Origin: an uncultured Christensenellaceae bacterium | GTDB taxonomy: Bacteria; Bacillota; Clostridia; Christensenellales; QAND01 | NCBI GenBank assembly: GCA_942492795.1 | Contig: OW818639.1 | Span: 1,685,358-1,749,357 of the forward strand | Direction: 5' to 3' | Length of the DNA: 64,000 nucleotides | Shown: positions 3,795 through 13,050 of the stretch, in pieces | Position numbering within the stretch: the stretch's first letter is position 1 | How the letters are laid out: the number at the start of each line of letters is the position of its first letter | The notes under the pieces: generated by a model | Told to the model about the DNA's origin: nothing | Seen by the model: only the letters and a program-made list of their open reading frames with translations | Database searches by the model: none | Made by a program: the position numbers and the translations under genes

Positions 3795-3840
3795 GAAAGA
3801 GCCTTTCCGAAGAGCTGCGCTCTTCGGAAAGGCTTTTGTG
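3795..3840. terminator. Bidirectional rho-independent terminator between msrAB (+) and the EF-hand gene (-)
   Basis: 15-bp perfect stem GCCTTTCCGAAGAGC / GCTCTTCGGAAAGGC. T-run on the plus side and A-run on the other side. Confidence 0.75.
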
Positions 3841-3854
3841 CATCCAGCGGGATT

Positions 3855-4895
3855 TTACAAAGACAGGTCGATGTGATGGATGGTACCTGCCGTTCCGTTC
3901 TCCTTCAGGTAAAAGGAACTGGATCGCATTGTACCGTAATCGCTTGTCGAGTCCTTGATGCTAAACGGGGTCGCGGCGCTTTGAAGATAAATCGCGCCGA
4001 TTCCCACATCGCTTAAGCGAACCAGTGTCCGTTGTCCTGCCTGATCACTTGAGAGGATGGCAAGCTTGCGAAACACGTCGTCCGACTCGTCTATCCAGCC
4101 GTTGCCGTCAAGATCGTATAGCTGCAGGTCTTCGAATCCATTGCCCGACTGTGGTCCGAAAAGCTCGGTGCCGTCGTTGATTTGCCCGTCGCCGTTCTTG
4201 TCCAGGGCCAAAAAGCCGCTGCCGTTGGTGGCGAAGGCTATCCGGTCCAGCTTCCCGTCGCCGTCAATGTCGAAATCCTGCTTGAGCGTTGTTAACGCCG
4301 GGGCGCTGCCCTGCGCAACAACAACCAGCGGATCAACCTTTGCGGCATCTCCCATTCGGATTGTGGTGTTTTGCTGCTCTACGAACGCGCGCGACAGACT
4401 GAAATTGACTTTAAACGCTATCGTCTTGCCGCCGGAGGTGGTGACCGTGCCTTCTGCGTTGTATTGAACGCTTTCGTTTTCCGCCACGGTTTGCTGATAC
4501 TCGTAAACCAGCCCCCAGCCATCCCGATTGCTCTGTCCGGTCACCGTTTGTGAAGTGCTGAGCATTACGGCTGGCTGAGGATTGTGCAGCCGGAGCTCCG
4601 GGGAGCGAAGTTTGACAGTTTTTCCCGTCATTTGGTAGATCAGAGACTCGATCAGTTTCAGTTTTACGTCGGTGGTCTGATCCTCTACCGATTCGGCATC
4701 GGTATTTGCGACCGAACAAGGCTTCGCTGTTTTGTACTGGTATGGATTGGGTTTGTTTCCAATTTCCACCACATACGCCACGTTCTGATCGGTATTCGGC
4801 CGATTGTGCCAAACTTCCAGCTTTTGTGTGATTTCCTTTTCGGAGTCCATTCGATAGGTAGTCTTTGTTTGTACATTACTATCGATGATTCTCAT
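3855..4895 (-). CDS. Hypothetical cytoplasmic protein with three EF-hand-type Ca-binding loops
   Basis: 346 aa with no signal peptide. Loops DKNGDGQINDGTE, DLDGNGWIDESD and DIDGDGKLDRIA fit the 12-residue EF-hand pattern. RBS AAGGAGG at 7 nt from the start. Confidence 0.55.
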   Translation of the reverse strand: MRIIDSNVQTKTTYRMDSEKEITQKLEVWHNRPNTDQNVAYVVEIGNKPNPYQYKTAKPCSVANTDAESVEDQTTDVKLKLIESLIYQMTGKTVKLRSPELRLHNPQPAVMLSTSQTVTGQSNRDGWGLVYEYQQTVAENESVQYNAEGTVTTSGGKTIAFKVNFSLSRAFVEQQNTTIRMGDAAKVDPLVVVAQGSAPALTTLKQDFDIDGDGKLDRIAFATNGSGFLALDKNGDGQINDGTELFGPQSGNGFEDLQLYDLDGNGWIDESDDVFRKLAILSSDQAGQRTLVRLSDVGIGAIYLQSAATPFSIKDSTSDYGTMRSSSFYLKENGTAGTIHHIDLSL

Positions 4896-5074: not shown

Positions 5075-7066
5075 TCAAGTTTTCGTATCCCCGGAGCGAA
5101 ATGAATACAGGCGCCGCATCAATGCACGAGCGTCGGATGCTTTTAAATCCACAGCATCCAAACCATCCGGAAAGACAAAGGTTGATTTATCAGGCATGTT
5201 GTTTTCGGGCGATTCGACCGATGCCCGATCGGTCAACAGGGAAGCCTGTTCCAGGTTAAACAGGCGTTGCTGAAGCAAGTCAAGGTGTCGGTTGTCTTCT
5301 TCATAAACGGATGAGCGCAACAGATCAAGATGGTGCTGCTCCATACGTTGCGAGCTCTGCCTCAATTCTTGAAGCCTATGCTCCATTTCACGCGCGTTCG
5401 TTCGCTCGGACATGGTTGCATCTGCCGAATCCACATAACGGGCATTTATTTCTTTAAATTCCGTCGCCAATCGCAGATTCTCCTCTACCACCTCATGCAG
5501 GCGCTGTTCGTAGGCCTTCTGACTTTTGAGAATATATCCGTACAACGTCAGTCTGTAGGCATCCACCTGCTTGGCGTTCAAGCCGATCAATGTGCGTTTG
5601 AGCGGGCGAAATGCAGAGGTTCTGTAATTGCCATACAACTGCGCTGTGGTTGGGCTCGATTTGTCACCTGTGAACGTTTTACGCTGCATGCTGCCCCAGC
5701 TGTTCTTTTGTTTTCGATAGGCAAACAGCGCCTCAACCCGAAAAATCGTGTTGATTTGCCGGTATCCGAAATTGTCTATGATGGCATAGAATGTAAGCTT
5801 TAGCAACTGCCTGAAAGACGGATACTTTTTAAATGTGTTTTCTTCCAAAAGCAGGGCGCCGATGGACAGTACGATGCCGTAGAGTACAGCCACGGCAAAG
5901 AAACCGAGAAAGAAATTAACGTTGATGATACCCATTGCATACGAGATCGGAACGGCAATGTAGCCCAAGAGTTCAAAGACAGGGCCGACGAATTCGAACA
6001 GCCAGTAATAGGGCAGACTTGCCATGCCAATGCGCCCGTATTTCGGGTTCAACAGCATCTTCTTATGTTTGAACAGGGAGAACATAAGCCCGATCTGCCA
6101 GCGTCTGCGCTGCTTGCGAAGATCCTTTACGGTTTCAGGCGGCTGCGTCCAGCATACGGGGTCGGGAATGAATTTGATGCGGTATTTTGTTTTTCGCTCG
6201 CGCAGCATCCGATGCATCTTGATGACAAGTTCCATATCTTCGCCGATGCAGTCGTTGGAATATCCGCCTGCCTCGATCGCGGTTTGCTTGTTGAATGCGC
6301 CGAAGGCACCGGATACGATAAGCAACATGCCCATTGCGTCAAAACCGATGCGTCCCGTCAAAAAGGAGCGGAGATATTCCACCGTCTGCAGATTGACGAT
6401 TGCCTTTCGGGACAAGTCAATCGTTTTTAGCTCTCCGTCCACAATCTTGCATCCGCTCGCGATGCGGACGATGCCGCCGACACCCACCACCCTGTGGTCT
6501 TTGACAAAGGGCATGATTATTTTGATCAGCGATTCCTTTTCAAGAATGGAATCGGCATCGATGGATACAAACACGGGGTAGCGTGAAACGTTGATGCCGG
6601 CATTGAGCGCGTCCGCCTTGCCACCGTTACGCTTGTCGATAATGACAAGATTCGGATGATCGGGCGAACGATAAATCGCATTTACTTCCTTCGTTTGCAG
6701 CGACCGCTTAAACGGCTGGTTTACGGCAAAGAGCTTAAACGTTTGAATCAGAAGCGGCAAGGTTTTATCCTTTGATCCGTCGTTGATGATGATAAGCTCG
6801 TATTCGGGGAAGTTCAGTGCCAGCAGATTCTTAACATTGTCGATAATCGTTGCTTCTTCGTTGTACGCAGGCACCAACAGCGAAATTGGGATCATATTCT
6901 CGGAATCGACGTAGCGTTCATGATCGGAATAGTGGCGAGACTTTACATATTTGCTCAGGCTCAGCGAAGAACTGATCAGTTGAACAAGGTACACGCAGTC
7001 CACCAATATCACGTAAATCAGCGATAAAACGTTGATCGCAATGATCGCAAAATAGAACGGGTTCAT
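5075..7066 (-). CDS. Processive family-2 glycosyltransferase (PgaC/IcaA/cellulose-synthase-like polysaccharide synthase) with a ~200-aa C-terminal coiled-coil extension
   Basis: N-terminal TM helix, then a GT-A domain (LLVPAYNEE, DADS). QRRRW matches the QxxRW motif of processive synthases. A multi-TM block follows, then a heptad-rich tail (QKAYEQRLHEVVEENLRLATEFKE...). The start overlaps the stop of the upstream gene (ATGA). Confidence 0.8.
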   Translation of the reverse strand: MNPFYFAIIAINVLSLIYVILVDCVYLVQLISSSLSLSKYVKSRHYSDHERYVDSENMIPISLLVPAYNEEATIIDNVKNLLALNFPEYELIIINDGSKDKTLPLLIQTFKLFAVNQPFKRSLQTKEVNAIYRSPDHPNLVIIDKRNGGKADALNAGINVSRYPVFVSIDADSILEKESLIKIIMPFVKDHRVVGVGGIVRIASGCKIVDGELKTIDLSRKAIVNLQTVEYLRSFLTGRIGFDAMGMLLIVSGAFGAFNKQTAIEAGGYSNDCIGEDMELVIKMHRMLRERKTKYRIKFIPDPVCWTQPPETVKDLRKQRRRWQIGLMFSLFKHKKMLLNPKYGRIGMASLPYYWLFEFVGPVFELLGYIAVPISYAMGIINVNFFLGFFAVAVLYGIVLSIGALLLEENTFKKYPSFRQLLKLTFYAIIDNFGYRQINTIFRVEALFAYRKQKNSWGSMQRKTFTGDKSSPTTAQLYGNYRTSAFRPLKRTLIGLNAKQVDAYRLTLYGYILKSQKAYEQRLHEVVEENLRLATEFKEINARYVDSADATMSERTNAREMEHRLQELRQSSQRMEQHHLDLLRSSVYEEDNRHLDLLQQRLFNLEQASLLTDRASVESPENNMPDKSTFVFPDGLDAVDLKASDARALMRRLYSFRSGDTKT

Positions 7067-10000
7067 AGCGCCACCTGCCTTTTGGTTTGACTTGCCATGA
7101 ATTGAAGAATATCATACGCGTATTTGTCGCCCGATTGTTTGACGCTCACGAGCAGTCCATCGATATCGGAATATTCCGCAAGCGCTTTTGCCGCATTGTA
7201 ACGAACCTGCCATTCCCGGTCGAACAACACATCGGCGATCTGCGGGGCATAGCGTTCCAAATCGATGCCGGATAGCGCTGAGGCTGCAATGCTTCGAACT
7301 TCCCACCGCACGTGTGATAATAGTTCGATGAGTTTGGGTGCTGCGGGGGCATATTTCAGCTGTCCCAGCGTTCGCGCCGCGTCAAGGACGGTGTTGAAGT
7401 CCTCACTTTCAAGGCAGGGGTGTATCAACGGTGCAAATCCGTCCAACCCTTCCAACCCGATGCGCTTGATGCAGATACGCCGGACGAACTTGTCGGGAGA
7501 GTCCAGCAACGCTCCGTACAATGCGCATTTATCACCGTCATACACTTTGAATATTTCCTGAAGGCTCCGGAAGGAAAGCGTCTGGATGTAGTTTTTATCC
7601 TGTGCAATGTGAACGATCTGTTCATGACCGGCCAACTGGGCCAAGCTTAGCAAGCCCTGGTACTGCAGATCGATATCGCTTTTATGCTTATACAGAAGTT
7701 TCATGATGTCATTTGCGAATACCGTGAGCTTCAATTCGCCGACAAGGCGGATGGTAATGATCAGATCGCCGATGTTGCGGTCTTTTATCCGACGCTTCAG
7801 AACTCTTTCAAATCCCGCTGCAATAACCAGTTCGCGCAACGCTTTTTCATACGGCTCATCATTTCCTTCGAACAGATCAACCAATATGGCAAGTCCTTTG
7901 CGTGAGCGCATCTTGTTCAGCTTCGCGGATACGTCGGCAGCGGACTTGTAATTCCGTTGCACCGCATGCACGGACGCCGTCACGCTGGCCTTCAGATGCT
8001 GCTTTCTGCGCTCGCGGATGGCCGTCTGTGTATGGATGTACATAAGCGCCAGAATAAAATAGACGATCAGGGAAAGCATGAACGCGATCATATAGTTTAA
8101 AACAGGCTGAATGGGGAACCATGTGGCGATTTTGGAAAACGCGGATTGGTTCCATTTTAACCAAAAGAGCTCAAAGCCGGTGCGCTGCGAAACATGCGCC
8201 GATGCGATGTTGGCAAAATAGTCCTTTACGATGAAATAGGACTTTTTAAGCCGTTCGTGATATGTGGGTTGTTCCCATTTCTGCCATGTGTATTTGCCGA
8301 TACCGCCGGTGCCCGTTTGGGAGGTGACGCCGAAGGTGAATCCATCCGCTTCCTGGGCTTTGATGCCCTGATTCCGGTACATGTTTCCGATGATCTTTTT
8401 GCCGGAAGGATCCATGACGTTGAGCAGCAGCCACGGAATGCGTATTTCAACAGATCCGTTGCCATAAAAGAGATCGGAAAGGGAATCGTAGTCGCCCGAA
8501 TTCGGGTTTGCGTTGCCATATCGGAGTTTTCCGGCGTCGAACATGGAAAACGGAACGCTCTGGCCTGTTTGAGGTATGGACAATGCGCGGTTTAGTACCT
8601 GCGTGATGGTCACGAAGTTACCGGTATCGGTTTTTTCGAATTCCGGATTGCGGGCCAATAAGGTTTTGCTCACACCGTATTCGTAATAGGTGACGTCATA
8701 ATGAGGGTCCACCAACAGCATGCTGTTGTCGCGGCCCGATATCACAAGCATGAAATCCGCGCCCATGTTCAGGTTTATGCCTTGATACGAAGTATTTCCC
8801 TGATCGGCGATGGTATCGATCGGGATATAGAGCGTATCGCGGGCAAAATCGGCAATGTTTACCTTGAGATAAACAAATGCCTCGTCCGATTTTACATAGA
8901 GCTTCGTTTCGCCGTTTTGCGCTATAAGATCGGTTTCTTTCCATTCGGACGGATCCCCGTCCACCGTTGCAGCGGTTGCGGTATTGCCGGGATCAAATGC
9001 CAGAAGCCCGAAGTTCTGCTCGTTTGTCTGGTAATCCAGCCAGTAAGCACGATTGTCTTTCAGATCCAGATCCATCGTGTTCCAGGTGGTCTTAAACCAC
9101 TCGTCGTCCCAGGAAAAGATCAGTGCACCCATGCAGCCTTCGGATTTGATATCCCCGATCAGGGAAGTGAGCATACGGCCTTGTTCGGATTCCTCAACGT
9201 TTCCCTGGTTAAACCCCGTCAGCATGTTTTCGTGGGCAATACCGCGGGATGCGGGTATACCAACCTCCGCCACAAGCAAAGGCACGCTGTGGTACGCATC
9301 AAGTTCCTTTAAGTAAGCGGCATATGTGTTCTTGTTTCCGCCCTGTTGGTATTTGACTTCATAGCTGAACATGTCCGGGTAATAGGGGTAAATATGATAG
9401 GAAGCGAAAAAGCCTGCTTCAAATCCGTCTTTTGCAACAAGATGCTCCACATCCACGCTGACGGCATCCTCTTTGGGGTTGGGCTCATTCGGATGCGAAA
9501 GCGGATCGGTCGTAACCCAGTTGCAAATCGCAACCGGGCGCTGTTCTTTATAATGCAGGGTTTCATATGCAATGGCCGTATCGGCCGCTTCCGCCAAAAA
9601 TGCTTCAAACGGGGACGCGTTATCGGTTTTCACAAAGGTGCCGTCATAACTATTCAAAGTAGGATTGTTCGTGTTGGTGGTGATGACAAACGCGGGATCC
9701 CACTCGATGCCTAAAATCAAACCTATGACATATTGCGAAACGTCTGCCCGATAGATTCCACCCGCGTTGCCCGGTAACTTCTGGATAGTCGCTTTGCCGT
9801 GGATGATGTCGACGGCGCGCTTGATATCCGCATTAAAGTCCACCTTGATTTTGCCGTCCTGGGCATAGGCATCCTGGTATTGTGCAATATCCGCTTCGTT
9901 GTTGTATACACCCTGCATGAGATACAGCGGATTTGAAGCGGTTTCGTTGAATTCATAAAGCGCTTCATAGAACACGGGCATCATCAGCGTATAGACGCGG

Positions 10001-10302
10001 ATGGTGTTGGCATTCATGTCGCTTATGTATTGGAACCAACGCAGGTATTCCTGTTTGGTGATGGACAGCTCACCGGGATAGCTGCCGGGTTTGGCGGAAC
10101 CCAGGTTTACACCCGCCACAAAAAGTTTCTTCCAATAGCCTTGTTCATCGTAAATTAAAAAGTTTTTGCCCTGCGTTTTGCCGACGTAGGCTATGCCGTT
10201 TTCGCTGTGGTATTTTTGAGAATAGGAACCTTGAAGAAGATAGAGCCGGTTGCCGAAAAAAACGGCGACAAGCACCGAAAAAAACAGTATATAGCCGAGC
10301 AT
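7063..10302 (-). CDS. Large bipartite membrane protein: extracellular clan GH-A-like TIM-barrel glycoside hydrolase domain, TM helix, cytoplasmic HEAT (PBS-lyase-type) repeats
   Basis: N-terminal signal anchor KRIMLGYILFFSVLVAVFF. Candidate acid/base HPNEP and nucleophile-like LLVAEVGIP spaced as in GH-A families. TM helix near residue 760 (LNYMIAFMLSLIVYFILALMYI). C-terminal repeated W/F-x-VR-x-xAAxALG HEAT units. The ORF extends to 10398 by a GTG, but no start has a good RBS; ATG 10302 is used here, so the start is uncertain. Confidence 0.7.
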   Translation of the reverse strand: MLGYILFFSVLVAVFFGNRLYLLQGSYSQKYHSENGIAYVGKTQGKNFLIYDEQGYWKKLFVAGVNLGSAKPGSYPGELSITKQEYLRWFQYISDMNANTIRVYTLMMPVFYEALYEFNETASNPLYLMQGVYNNEADIAQYQDAYAQDGKIKVDFNADIKRAVDIIHGKATIQKLPGNAGGIYRADVSQYVIGLILGIEWDPAFVITTNTNNPTLNSYDGTFVKTDNASPFEAFLAEAADTAIAYETLHYKEQRPVAICNWVTTDPLSHPNEPNPKEDAVSVDVEHLVAKDGFEAGFFASYHIYPYYPDMFSYEVKYQQGGNKNTYAAYLKELDAYHSVPLLVAEVGIPASRGIAHENMLTGFNQGNVEESEQGRMLTSLIGDIKSEGCMGALIFSWDDEWFKTTWNTMDLDLKDNRAYWLDYQTNEQNFGLLAFDPGNTATAATVDGDPSEWKETDLIAQNGETKLYVKSDEAFVYLKVNIADFARDTLYIPIDTIADQGNTSYQGINLNMGADFMLVISGRDNSMLLVDPHYDVTYYEYGVSKTLLARNPEFEKTDTGNFVTITQVLNRALSIPQTGQSVPFSMFDAGKLRYGNANPNSGDYDSLSDLFYGNGSVEIRIPWLLLNVMDPSGKKIIGNMYRNQGIKAQEADGFTFGVTSQTGTGGIGKYTWQKWEQPTYHERLKKSYFIVKDYFANIASAHVSQRTGFELFWLKWNQSAFSKIATWFPIQPVLNYMIAFMLSLIVYFILALMYIHTQTAIRERRKQHLKASVTASVHAVQRNYKSAADVSAKLNKMRSRKGLAILVDLFEGNDEPYEKALRELVIAAGFERVLKRRIKDRNIGDLIITIRLVGELKLTVFANDIMKLLYKHKSDIDLQYQGLLSLAQLAGHEQIVHIAQDKNYIQTLSFRSLQEIFKVYDGDKCALYGALLDSPDKFVRRICIKRIGLEGLDGFAPLIHPCLESEDFNTVLDAARTLGQLKYAPAAPKLIELLSHVRWEVRSIAASALSGIDLERYAPQIADVLFDREWQVRYNAAKALAEYSDIDGLLVSVKQSGDKYAYDILQFMASQTKRQVAL

Positions 10303-10540
10303 GATTCGTTTAGGAATGATGTTTTCCTCAATTCCATAAAAGTATGACGGAAAGGCCTTTTCCTTTGTGTGACAAGTACTTACAAAGCACAGGCTCACTG
10401 GGTAAAAGTCGCCAACATATTTCGATATCAGTATACAGGAAACGACATGGCGTTGGAATATGGCTGATCGGTATAAATTAAAAAATATCCAGAATAAACG
10501 TTGTATTTTTTATTGAAACAAAGATACAAACAGCACGATA

Positions 10541-10590
10541 AAAAACAAAAGGGAAAAGCCGGAAAGAGCGTTCCTCTTTCCGGCTTTTCG
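10541..10590. terminator. Rho-independent terminator after the larA-like gene (also shields the EPS-module promoter region)
   Basis: Stem GCCGGAAAGAG / CTCTTTCCGGC, flanked by A/T runs on both sides. Confidence 0.7.
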
Positions 10591-10650: not shown

Positions 10651-11919
10651 TTAGAGGATGTTCCCGTCTTTGTCAAACACAAGCGAATATGGTTCGGAAG
10701 CGATCTCAAGATAGGGATTCGCCAGCACCTCATCCATCAGAGACTCGCTGACTTCGATGACATCCAGCTGCAAGGTATTTTTGATCCGGACGAGTCGCAC
10801 ATTTTCCTTGTCCAGGATGTTGCAGGTCTTGATGGCTGCCTGGAACACCTGCAAGTCGTTTTTGAACACCATCGGCATCTTGACCGTAAGCGGAACGGTG
10901 GATGTCAAAGCATTCGGATAGGATTGTTCCGGAATGAACTTGTCTGCCAGGCGTTTGGTGGTGTAGTCGACAATACCGACGCCATTCGCATTGCCGTGTG
11001 AACGATCCGTCAGATCAAGGATGCCCATTTTGGAGATGTTCGGGCCGCCGGATATGAAAGGCGTATGATAGCGCCCCACAACGCCGGTGTCAAATCCCGT
11101 TCCGCTGATATCCTTGCCGATCTCATCCATGATGAGCACGTCGAGCTGATCGAACTGTATGCGCGGGCACAACTCTCTGGAAAGCAGCTGCAAACCGATT
11201 TCACGCTCGGCAATCTCATCCTTGTTCAACACAACCAGCGTGTGTGTTTCATGGAAGGCATTTTCCAGCAAGCCTACCGCAAAGAGGATGTTCTTCATTT
11301 CGATCATCACATTTGCGATCTCCGGGATGTTTACCGCCATCTTTCCAAAACCCAATTCATGGCAAATATCTGCGCCTTGCTGCTTGCCCAATCCGATGGT
11401 GAGCATTTTCATCAGACCGCTCTCATAAGGCCCGCGGAACGATGTATGCGGCTTGATGCGGTTGATGATGACGATGCCATCCGCCTCGCTTGCGTATTTA
11501 TCCATCAGAACAGGCAAGCCGTTCACCGTTTCTGCAAGCTGCACCGTTTCCATGGAGGCATGGATCGGGGCATCCACGTAATCCTCCGTGATGCCCATGC
11601 CTTCAAGCATGCTCTTTTGGCCTTCGGCCGTTGCGCCGCCGTGGCTGCCCATCGCGGGTACGATGAAAGGTTCCGCACCTTTTTCGCGAAGTTTTGCGAT
11701 GATGATCTTCACACACAGCGGCAGATTCGTGATCCCCCGGCTGCCCACTGCGACGGCAATTTTCATACCGGGCGTGATGGATCGGTATCCTCTGTTGGAT
11801 TGAATCTGTTCCATCAGCGTTGCTTCGACGTCTTCTAGCTTTGTGCGGTCAAAGGTTTGCGTGACTTTCATCACTTTTGGAATCGGAATGCCCTCAAGCA
11901 ATATATCAATAGCGTCCAT
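10651..11919 (-). CDS. LarA-family (nickel-pincer cofactor-dependent) lactate/2-hydroxyacid racemase-like protein (DUF2088)
   Basis: 422 aa. Length and overall pattern match LarA (AVAVGSRGI, PAMGSHGG, INRIKPHTSF). Assignment is by motif recollection only. Confidence 0.5.
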   Translation of the reverse strand: MDAIDILLEGIPIPKVMKVTQTFDRTKLEDVEATLMEQIQSNRGYRSITPGMKIAVAVGSRGITNLPLCVKIIIAKLREKGAEPFIVPAMGSHGGATAEGQKSMLEGMGITEDYVDAPIHASMETVQLAETVNGLPVLMDKYASEADGIVIINRIKPHTSFRGPYESGLMKMLTIGLGKQQGADICHELGFGKMAVNIPEIANVMIEMKNILFAVGLLENAFHETHTLVVLNKDEIAEREIGLQLLSRELCPRIQFDQLDVLIMDEIGKDISGTGFDTGVVGRYHTPFISGGPNISKMGILDLTDRSHGNANGVGIVDYTTKRLADKFIPEQSYPNALTSTVPLTVKMPMVFKNDLQVFQAAIKTCNILDKENVRLVRIKNTLQLDVIEVSESLMDEVLANPYLEIASEPYSLVFDKDGNIL

Positions 11920-11967
11920 GGTATCCTCCTGTTTTAAAGGGTATCTGTATTCTGTGACATTGTAAAC

Positions 11968-13050
11968 TTATAGCTTAATGGCAACACGCAGGCAATCGAA
12001 GCTCGTTGCAGCAAGATCAAAACCTGCATACCAATCTTCAAGCGAAAACGTATGCGTCACCAACGGATCAAGCTTAACGGCGCCGCTTTGCACCAGCTTT
12101 ATCGCCGTCGTCCAGTCGTAGGGGATCTGGGAGATCTCACCGCGAACATCCAGTTCCTTCACGATGATCTTGTAGGTATCCACCGGTGCCACAATGCCGC
12201 CCCTGATACCGCCGCCGGCCCACATGACCCTGCCGCCCTTGCGTACGATGTCCAGGGACTCATCGATGGGCTCTACCGACCCCGTATTCTCAAGAACCAC
12301 ATCCACGCCCAGACCGCCTGTGATCTCGGCGACCCTCTTACGCACATCTTCCTTTTCGACGTTGATGGTGTAATCGCAGCCCAATTCTTTTGCCATGGCC
12401 AAACGTGTGGGTTCGTCCCTGGTCAATCCCGTCATGATGATAGGACCGGCGCCGATCGCCTTGCAGACCTGCATCAACAGGATGCCTCTCGCACCCGGGC
12501 CCAGAATTGCTACGGATTCTCCCGCCTTGACGTTCATCCGCGTGATGACGCTGTGCACGGAACCTGCTGTTGGTTCCATCAGCACGGCCGATCTCGGATT
12601 GATGTTGTCCGGCAGTTTGTGCAGCTGAAATTCAGGCCAAACGGTGTACTTTGCAAAACCGCCGCCTGTGACGAAATGAGCACGCCCTTCCATCGGAGCG
12701 ATGGTGTTGCATATATTGAACTTGCCTTCCAGACAGTTGGGGCAGCGGCCGCAGTAGAACGTTACGATCTCATGGATCACGCGGTCTCCGACTTTCACGT
12801 TTTTTACGGCAGGGCCAATTTCCTTTACGACACTCACGATTTCATGCCCCACGACGACCTTTCGCGGGGAGGTCTTAACACCCGTTTTATCGGCGTTCCA
12901 ACGGTGTATATCGCTGCCGCAGATGCCGCAATACTCCACCTCGCAAAGCACGTCGTGCGGCGCGTAGGGATTGTTGCCCAATGTAGGGACAGGTACGGTT
13001 TCCAACTCCAGATCACCGTTGGGATAGGCGATAATGCCCTTCATTTCCAT
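11968..13050 (-). CDS. Zinc-dependent alcohol/polyol dehydrogenase (MDR superfamily, sorbitol/threonine dehydrogenase-like)
   Basis: Catalytic Zn motif GHE(IVSVV), structural Zn Cys cluster CGRCPNC, Rossmann ILGPGARG. 360 aa. Confidence 0.85.
   Translation of the reverse strand: MEMKGIIAYPNGDLELETVPVPTLGNNPYAPHDVLCEVEYCGICGSDIHRWNADKTGVKTSPRKVVVGHEIVSVVKEIGPAVKNVKVGDRVIHEIVTFYCGRCPNCLEGKFNICNTIAPMEGRAHFVTGGGFAKYTVWPEFQLHKLPDNINPRSAVLMEPTAGSVHSVITRMNVKAGESVAILGPGARGILLMQVCKAIGAGPIIMTGLTRDEPTRLAMAKELGCDYTINVEKEDVRKRVAEITGGLGVDVVLENTGSVEPIDESLDIVRKGGRVMWAGGGIRGGIVAPVDTYKIIVKELDVRGEISQIPYDWTTAIKLVQSGAVKLDPLVTHTFSLEDWYAGFDLAATSFDCLRVAIKL

Follow-up and report, generated by a model that had tools for sequence, protein, structure and literature searches.

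A candidate accessory subunit of a synthase-dependent exopolysaccharide system, joining a GH-A-fold ectodomain to a cytoplasmic HEAT solenoid, in an uncultured Christensenellaceae bacterium

Synthase-dependent polysaccharides such as cellulose, poly-N-acetylglucosamine (PNAG), Pel and alginate are central to biofilms, and few systems of this kind are known in Gram-positive anaerobes. In PgaC-PgaD of Escherichia coli and IcaA-IcaD of staphylococci, a processive membrane family 2 glycosyltransferase (GT2) needs an adjacent, non-homologous membrane co-subunit (PMC7112194). Listeria PssA-E and Bacillus subtilis YdaJKLMN represent exopolysaccharide (EPS) operons of Firmicutes that depend on cyclic di-GMP (c-di-GMP) (PMC4125290, PMC13274460); PssD has been described as a BcsB orthologue, and PssE provides a degenerate GGDEF receptor for comparison (PMC4125290). 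In Lactobacillus acidophilus, gtsA-gtsB-pdeB encodes the GT2 GtsB, a membrane partner GtsA with "no conserved domains" and a degenerate c-di-GMP receptor (PMC6123363). The present analysis concerns a 64,000-nucleotide stretch (the window) from an uncultured Christensenellaceae bacterium, contig OW818639.1, positions 1,685,358 to 1,749,357. On its minus strand, where all window features discussed below are located, a long gene encoding an extracytoplasmic domain and a cytoplasmic HEAT solenoid in one chain is directly followed by a gene for a processive GT2. Judged by its relatives, the long protein joins two operon genes that most genomes keep apart, and it is rather probably an accessory subunit of a synthase-dependent EPS machine, in which a polymer-processing enzyme is tethered to the synthase via a HEAT adaptor.

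The open reading frame (ORF) 7063..10398, 1111 aa when counted from its first GTG, is a genuine gene and no chance ORF, as it has thousands of homologues: at least 3,939 were significant among 8,000 scored database candidates, with E values down to 0, including an identical NCBI protein and one at 86% identity. A Kyte-Doolittle scan reveals exactly two membrane-length hydrophobic segments, the first at residues ~33-53 with K-R before it and the second at 767-789 with RERRKQHLK after it (1111-aa numbering). The positive-inside rule, applied to the charges flanking both helices, supports a topology in which ~710 residues lie outside and the last ~320 are cytoplasmic, so that hydropathy agrees with the inside/outside split proposed in the first-pass annotation, which had been made from the sequence alone.

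An AlphaFold2 model of the protein, built from a 60-sequence alignment, is confident, with a mean predicted local distance difference test score (pLDDT) of 90.6 and a predicted template-modelling score (pTM) of 0.68. It starts with the signal-anchor membrane helix (LGYILFFSVLVAVFFG..., 10240..10302, identified by hydropathy and corresponding to model helix 2-16), followed by an extracytoplasmic (beta/alpha)8 barrel of the clan GH-A fold (9028..10131, residues ~60-425 when numbered from ATG 10302) and by beta-rich extracytoplasmic domains (8233..9015, residues ~430-690). Next come a linker of low pLDDT that includes an amphipathic helix (8113..8205), one very long helix that contains the second membrane segment (8032..8100), and an alpha-solenoid reaching the C-terminus (7066..7941). 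The linker marks the fusion junction, where standalone forms of the N-terminal part end and standalone forms of the C-terminal part begin. The cytoplasmic solenoid anticipated in the first-pass annotation is borne out by Pfam repeats above the curated cutoffs at residues ~960-1080 (HEAT_2, 53.8 bits against a cutoff of 27.7; HEAT, 32.2 against 23.5; HEAT_PBS, 26.3 against 20.9), by the modelled alpha-solenoid at residues 788-1078 and by PDB sequence matches, which are artificial alphaRep/HEAT proteins with E values to 2e-16. The protein therefore belongs with the HEAT/PBS-lyase HEAT-like repeat proteins. As a phycobilin lyase (CpcE/F, CpeY, NblB) it can be rejected, the similarity being confined to the repeats, with NCBIfam scores of 11-19 bits against equivalogue cutoffs of 220-600.

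The neighbouring gene (5075..7066) encodes a processive GT2 synthase of 663 aa, and its ATG overlaps the TGA of the fused gene as ATGA, which suggests translational coupling. DAD, GED and QRRRW motifs can be read in its translation, Pfam matches comprise Glycos_transf_2, Glyco_tranf_2_3 and Chitin_synth_2, and its residues 52-391 align with the catalytic region of BcsA; the locus thus has an adjacent processive GT2 with D, DxD, (G/T)ED and QxxRW motifs and membrane helices, as expected of synthase-dependent EPS systems. The best NCBIfam match is PgaC_IcaA (1.5e-43, 149.3 bits). Assignment as a PgaC/IcaA-type PNAG synthase (TIGR03937) was rejected, as this score falls far below the equivalogue cutoff of 422.3 bits. 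The synthase also carries a lineage-specific, coiled-coil-like C-terminal extension of ~200 aa (5078..5674) with heptad-like charged helices; none of the GT2s in the 80 related loci surveyed below has it, the syntenic 86%-identical relative (locus L081) does, and it has no Pfam match even at E 10. A DivIVA identity for it, an idea taken from a DivIVA-containing neighbour of the synthase in Heliophilum, was not supported, given this Pfam result and a BLASTP E value of 1.3. In L081 the GT2 is split over two called ORFs of 292 and 380 aa (7306-9296), which implies that the gene there is frameshifted, a pseudogene or wrongly assembled.

The locus was next followed across genomes. One genome per species was taken, giving 80 related loci in which all ORFs were translated and searched with four pieces of the window's two proteins and then with a profile of the C-terminal part, that is, the second transmembrane helix and the solenoid (TM+HEAT). 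In ~55 of the 80 loci TM+HEAT is a separate ORF of ~345-395 aa with its own N-terminal membrane helix, always directly adjoining a GT2 of ~475 aa. The usual set therein consists of an N-domain of ~700 aa, corresponding to the extracytoplasmic part of the fused protein, TM+HEAT of ~350-390 aa and the processive GT2 of ~475 aa, and it was found across Clostridia, Bacilli, Tenericutes and on one Deinococcus plasmid. In Heliophilum fasciatum (L018) and in two Tenericutes/Izemoplasmatales genomes (L045, L080), by contrast, it is the N-terminus of the GT2 that carries HEAT, in the order membrane helix, HEAT region, two membrane helices and GT2, which matches the window topology. Pfam detects the HEAT repeats in L018 and L080, not in L045, where they were assigned by the matching architecture, and a homologue search with one HEAT-GT2 fusion returned two proteins only. 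Because HEAT is joined with the N-domain in certain lineages and with the GT2 in others, a Rosetta-stone comparison argues for N-domain, TM+HEAT and GT2 acting as one complex, and on the same grounds the downstream GT2 can be named, with fair confidence, as the cytoplasmic partner of the fused protein.

The order of the three genes varies between lineages. Other Christensenellaceae have N-domain, TM+HEAT and GT2 as three abutting genes; in Clostridium an extra gene follows the N-domain in some loci, before TM+HEAT and GT2; Paenibacillus has N-domain, a long paralogue of it, TM+HEAT and GT2; and in Bacillus and Ruminococcus-type loci TM+HEAT and GT2 precede the N-domain. Two RefSeq plasmids carry three separate genes in the window's order with overlapping ends: in Deinococcus radiophilus they encode 808 aa, a 390-aa "HEAT repeat domain-containing protein" and a 479-aa "glycosyltransferase", and in Planococcus maritimus 689, 355 and 470 aa. 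On the Planococcus plasmid, genes for polyphosphate-polymerase-domain, DUF4956 and CotH kinase family proteins lie directly before the triad (L083, 5096-7952), and a Qat anti-phage system is encoded a few kb downstream. The combination of domains, regarded as rare in the first-pass annotation, is consequently better described as two adjacent operon genes that are usually separate. Among the 80 species loci the fused form occurs only in L001 and L002, and an exhaustive TM+HEAT search gave, in end-to-end clusters at 50% identity, ~45 standalone and five or six fused clusters. In a rough neighbour-joining tree of N-domains, which carries no support values, fused forms occupy at least two to three separate positions, with fused P0071 lying inside a group of split forms from Clostridium. 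More than one fusion or fission event is probable, and in the window's lineage the joined protein would have arisen when the stop codon separating the accessory genes was lost.

At the level of fold, the extracellular domain is GH-A-like, as the first-pass annotation had supposed: the modelled (beta/alpha)8 barrel is superimposable on members of clan GH-A of the glycoside hydrolases (GH). All its nearest structural neighbours are enzymes and the closest belongs to GH157, at alignment identities of 13-17%. The CAZy family implied by the same annotation did not materialise, and the family assignment falls by the test which that annotation had itself set. Residues 1-750 of the fused protein have no Pfam or NCBIfam match at E<=0.1, and a 40-sequence family profile of the N-domain found no PDB chain at E<=10, so that, as far as profile comparison goes, the N-domain is an orphan at sequence level though its fold assignment is strong. 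In the beta-rich region, which the first-pass annotation had taken for a possible carbohydrate-binding module and for which no separate fold search (residues 430-690) was made, no Pfam carbohydrate-binding module was matched; beta-sandwich domains likewise lie C-terminal to the barrel in GH157 and GH2 relatives.

Both the 60-sequence and the 40-sequence alignments contain a set of invariant residues (numbered from ATG 10302): R102 in strand 2, N135-E136 after strand 3, E200 after strand 4, N261-W262 in strand 5, Y302-H303-Y305 in strand 6, E346 in strand 7 and W398-D400-E401-W402 after strand 8. Primary copies of the N-domain retain this set across phyla. Placed on the model, these residues would form a GH5-like constellation with E200 as candidate acid/base and E346 as candidate nucleophile. 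Several genomes also encode "long" N-domain paralogues of ~1020 aa with an extra N-terminal ~390 aa, among them the Ruminococcus-type forms in L039 (4290-7355), L035 (2729-5779) and L044 (4222-7296). The putative catalytic glutamates appear to be gone from these Ruminococcus-type long paralogues and from the Planococcus plasmid copy (L083, 7977-10046), the alignment at this distance being uncertain, and are retained in the long forms of Bacillus; the glutamate-less paralogues may be pseudo-enzymes.

Taken together, these features suggest how the machine might work. The downstream GT2 would polymerise and translocate a polysaccharide, presumably beta-linked because the nearest relatives of both synthase and barrel act on beta-linked equatorial substrates. 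The HEAT solenoid, anchored by a single helix at the cytoplasmic face of the membrane, would dock on the cytoplasmic part of the GT2, while the membrane-tethered GH-A ectodomain of ~700 residues would trim, release or transglycosylate the emerging polymer, in parallel to the roles of BcsZ, PslG, PelA or plant KORRIGAN in other systems. Fusion of the two accessory parts would fix a 1:1 stoichiometry and the proximity of the outside enzyme to the synthase channel. The GT2 would thus be the cytoplasmic partner postulated in the first-pass annotation; a single-helix relay from HEAT to the ectodomain is unlikely as a general principle, since the two are usually separate polypeptides.

The fused protein belongs to none of the established PgaCD/IcaAD, BcsA/BcsB/BcsZ, CesA/KORRIGAN or Pss/Yda systems, although it resembles each in part. 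With PgaCD and IcaAD it shares a PgaC/IcaA-type GT2 and a membrane co-subunit encoded alongside, but the co-subunit here comprises a single helix and a 320-residue HEAT solenoid instead of a small two-helix protein, and there is no PgaB/IcaB deacetylase, PgaA porin or PgaD. BcsA-BcsB-BcsZ and plant CesA-KORRIGAN likewise pair a synthase with an extracytoplasmic partner anchored in the membrane and with an endoglycanase dedicated to the nascent chain, and a link to c-di-GMP is seen in relatives of the window system. The window system differs in having no BcsB or PilZ and in a HEAT-tethered, glycanase-like domain that is GH-A/GH157-like, not GH8 or GH9. The characterised endo-beta-1,3-glucanase LaGH157 (PDB 9fz9/9g4n), to which the ectodomain is only 13-17% identical with no sequence-profile link, is soluble and catabolic, whereas the window domain is membrane-tethered and synthase-linked, and the substrate specificity of LaGH157 cannot be carried over. 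In Pss and Yda a GT2 akin to PgaC/IcaA is combined with a large partner outside the membrane and with a GGDEF receptor of the degenerate kind; their partner is BcsB-like whereas a GH-A barrel is found here, and no HEAT protein has been described in either. Identification of the N-domain with B. subtilis YdaN or Listeria PssD was accordingly rejected, as it has no BcsB Pfam match and folds as a triosephosphate isomerase-type barrel. The gtsA-gtsB-pdeB genes may be a relative of the window system, a lead that comes from the published description and not from the GtsA sequence. A survey of synthase-dependent operons mentions no HEAT component, and literature searches yielded no description of a HEAT and GT2 EPS system or of the triad, and no name or Pfam family for it.

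In many relatives the triad is associated with c-di-GMP signalling. Genes of this type, expected of c-di-GMP-regulated EPS systems, lie in or beside it in 48 of the 80 loci, but not in the window. They encode GGDEF-REC proteins located between the N-domain and HEAT genes in Clostridium, PAS-GGDEF-HD-GYP proteins, 740-aa HD-GYP proteins, a 7TM-GGDEF protein and, in Heliophilum, GGDEF-REC-DivIVA. GGDEF domains encoded within the operon have no GG[DE]EF motif, as is typical of the c-di-GMP receptors PelD and YdaK, and because of this missing motif the GGDEF-REC proteins are probably receptors and not cyclases. Motif-less GGDEF-REC genes were noted in L013 (12114-13616), L015 (12145-13419), L020 (12022-13311), L018 (5429-7648) and L045 (16039-18030); the Heliophilum copy has a C-terminal DivIVA part and the L045 copy an N-terminal ODP metallo-beta-lactamase-type domain.

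Several points weigh against an accessory enzyme docked on the synthase. Binding of HEAT to the GT2 is deduced from gene order and the alternative fusions, and Pfam, NCBIfam and PDB profile searches linked the ectodomain to no characterised GH family. The catalytic assignment is uncertain, because Ile precedes E200 in place of the Asn of the clan GH-A "NE" motif while N135-E136 sits after strand 3; moreover, the residues were placed on predicted strands. Since some paralogues elsewhere have lost both glutamates, the fold can serve a non-catalytic role. It could thus be argued that the ectodomain is a BcsB-like guide or scaffold that attaches to the nascent chain and hands it on across the wall, its acidic residues serving for binding. 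Such a guide would be compatible with the missing CAZy-type families and the missing Asn before the beta4 glutamate, and paralogues without the catalytic glutamates, namely the Ruminococcus-type long forms and the Planococcus plasmid copy, do stay in the operon. Nevertheless, this alternative is considered improbable, as the full GH-A-type residue set is invariant in the window protein and in primary copies over 40-60 sequences at 37-86% identity, which is typical of an active site, all nearest structures are enzymes, and loci with degenerate paralogues retain an intact copy.

The window itself also contains no homologue of GGDEF, HD-GYP or REC and, in the window or the 5' leader, no c-di-GMP riboswitch or other RNA element, with no Rfam family at gathering score and no tRNA, rRNA or riboswitch in the 64 kb; these absences count against the synthase-linked reading. 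A different proposal, which goes back to the first-pass annotation, is that of a transmembrane signalling device acting independently of the synthase, in which HEAT would sense a cytoplasmic ligand or partner, for instance c-di-GMP either directly or by way of a degenerate GGDEF-REC protein, and would relay the signal along the single helix to turn the outside enzyme on or off. HEAT solenoids are protein-binding surfaces, and the frequent c-di-GMP genes, with receptor-like, motif-less GGDEF domains in the operon, would suit such a device. However, a covalent single-helix relay cannot be the general mechanism when HEAT and the ectodomain are separate polypeptides in most genomes; the HEAT gene always adjoins the GT2 gene and is sometimes fused with it, the HEAT part showed no c-di-GMP-binding motif of a known type, and the window has no c-di-GMP genes, so that signalling appears marginally less probable still than the scaffold. 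As to the long ORF itself being an artefact, whether from faulty sequencing or assembly or from a recent read-through that turns two genes into a pseudogene, the tight abutment of the two separate genes in related Christensenellaceae genomes might invite the suspicion. It is effectively refuted, and its residual probability is minute. Over 60 independent database proteins, 37-86% identical and drawn from various assemblies and sources, share the fused layout and conserve the linker; fused forms also fill five or six clusters at 50% identity, and the identical protein lies on a 2.6-Mb NCBI contig. The preferred reading thus remains that of a polymer-processing subunit attached to the GT2 through its HEAT part.

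It is tempting to go further and to regard N-domain, TM+HEAT and GT2 as an undescribed class of synthase-dependent EPS system, with HEAT as a new type of obligatory co-subunit that recruits a degenerate GGDEF-REC receptor of c-di-GMP inside the cell and positions a new family of GH-A enzymes, orphan in sequence, outside it. This broader proposal is tentative and should be taken as possible but on balance doubtful; if true, the class would be widespread in Clostridia, Bacilli, Tenericutes and Deinococcus, and the window protein would be its covalently locked version. As a single protein the fusion is of moderate interest. Its greater value is as a pointer to a large, conserved and uncharacterised system that is widespread in Gram-positive bacteria, the N-domain alone having at least 3,900 database homologues. 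The ectodomain may be the first member of a new family of glycoside hydrolases or transglycosylases, and the natural fusions suggest which proteins touch and offer a single-chain construct for structural work.

The start codon deserves separate consideration. The first-pass annotation had left the choice open between GTG 10398, which has no Shine-Dalgarno sequence, and ATG 10302, and it had called for an alignment of orthologues; neither codon is in fact preceded by a Shine-Dalgarno sequence. The alignment was made between the window, L081 and L002 (75% identity), and it favours a third codon, both earlier candidates probably being wrong. GTG 10398 is rejected because it is not conserved in L081, where single-base indels shift the frame upstream and put the aligned region out of frame, and ATG 10302 because L081 has ATT and L002 has ATA in its place; for the window alone ATG 10302 is a possible start. 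The 17 codons 5' of a block conserved between the window and L081, GGAATTGAGGAAAAC(ATC/GCC)ATTCCTAAA, show mostly non-synonymous changes relative to L081, as expected of a leader. In L002 an in-frame TGA lies seven codons upstream of 'ATT CCA AAA AAG', with GAGGGGAG just upstream, and neither ATG nor GTG nor TTG occurs ahead of the membrane helix.

ATT 10317 is shared by the window, L081 and L002, and at its position, plus or minus one residue, distant orthologues have ATG with a good Shine-Dalgarno sequence and begin M[KR]K..GY. The probable start codon is therefore ATT (AUU, 10315..10317), giving (M)PKRIMLGY..., 8 nt downstream of the Shine-Dalgarno core GAGG (10326..10329) within the conserved GGAATTGAGG. 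On this comparison it is likely, with slightly more assurance than attaches to the function of the protein, that AUU at 10317..10315 initiates translation. The coding sequence would then be 7063..10317, with stop TGA at 7065..7063, and the product 1084 aa long, the earlier figure of 1111 aa probably being too high. With an AUU start, the conserved positively charged residues ahead of the signal anchor are retained. The AUU start also matters for annotation, as gene callers choose a different wrong start in each relative.

Further upstream, a putative extended -10 promoter element, TGTATACT (10430..10437), falls in a block conserved with L081; a consensus scan did not detect it. An intrinsic-terminator-like hairpin of 16 pairs followed by a T run (10553..10589) closes the upstream Lar_N-like gene, from which it follows that the operon begins after the hairpin. 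At the other end, the first strong terminator after the GT2 gene (3834..3800) follows a gene for a 346-aa protein with EF-hand/FG-GAP-like loops (3855-4895), so that terminator-like hairpins bracket the unit on both sides. This gene may be a third member of the operon, its membership being uncertain; it also stands after the GT2 gene in L081, where its counterpart is tagged Pfam "SPM". The 346-aa protein has three D-x-D/N-G-D-G calcium loops and no signal peptide, and a gap of 180 nt separates its gene from that of the GT2. Upstream of the operon, 10651-13050 encodes the Lar_N/DUF362-like protein and a zinc alcohol dehydrogenase, both syntenic in L081 and probably unrelated to the operon, since the strong terminator separates them from it. 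In L081 an extra flavodoxin-like gene lies between these neighbours and the operon. The GC content of the window is 50.4%, and its nearest relatives are metagenome-assembled genomes of uncultured Eubacteriales, Christensenellales and Clostridia.

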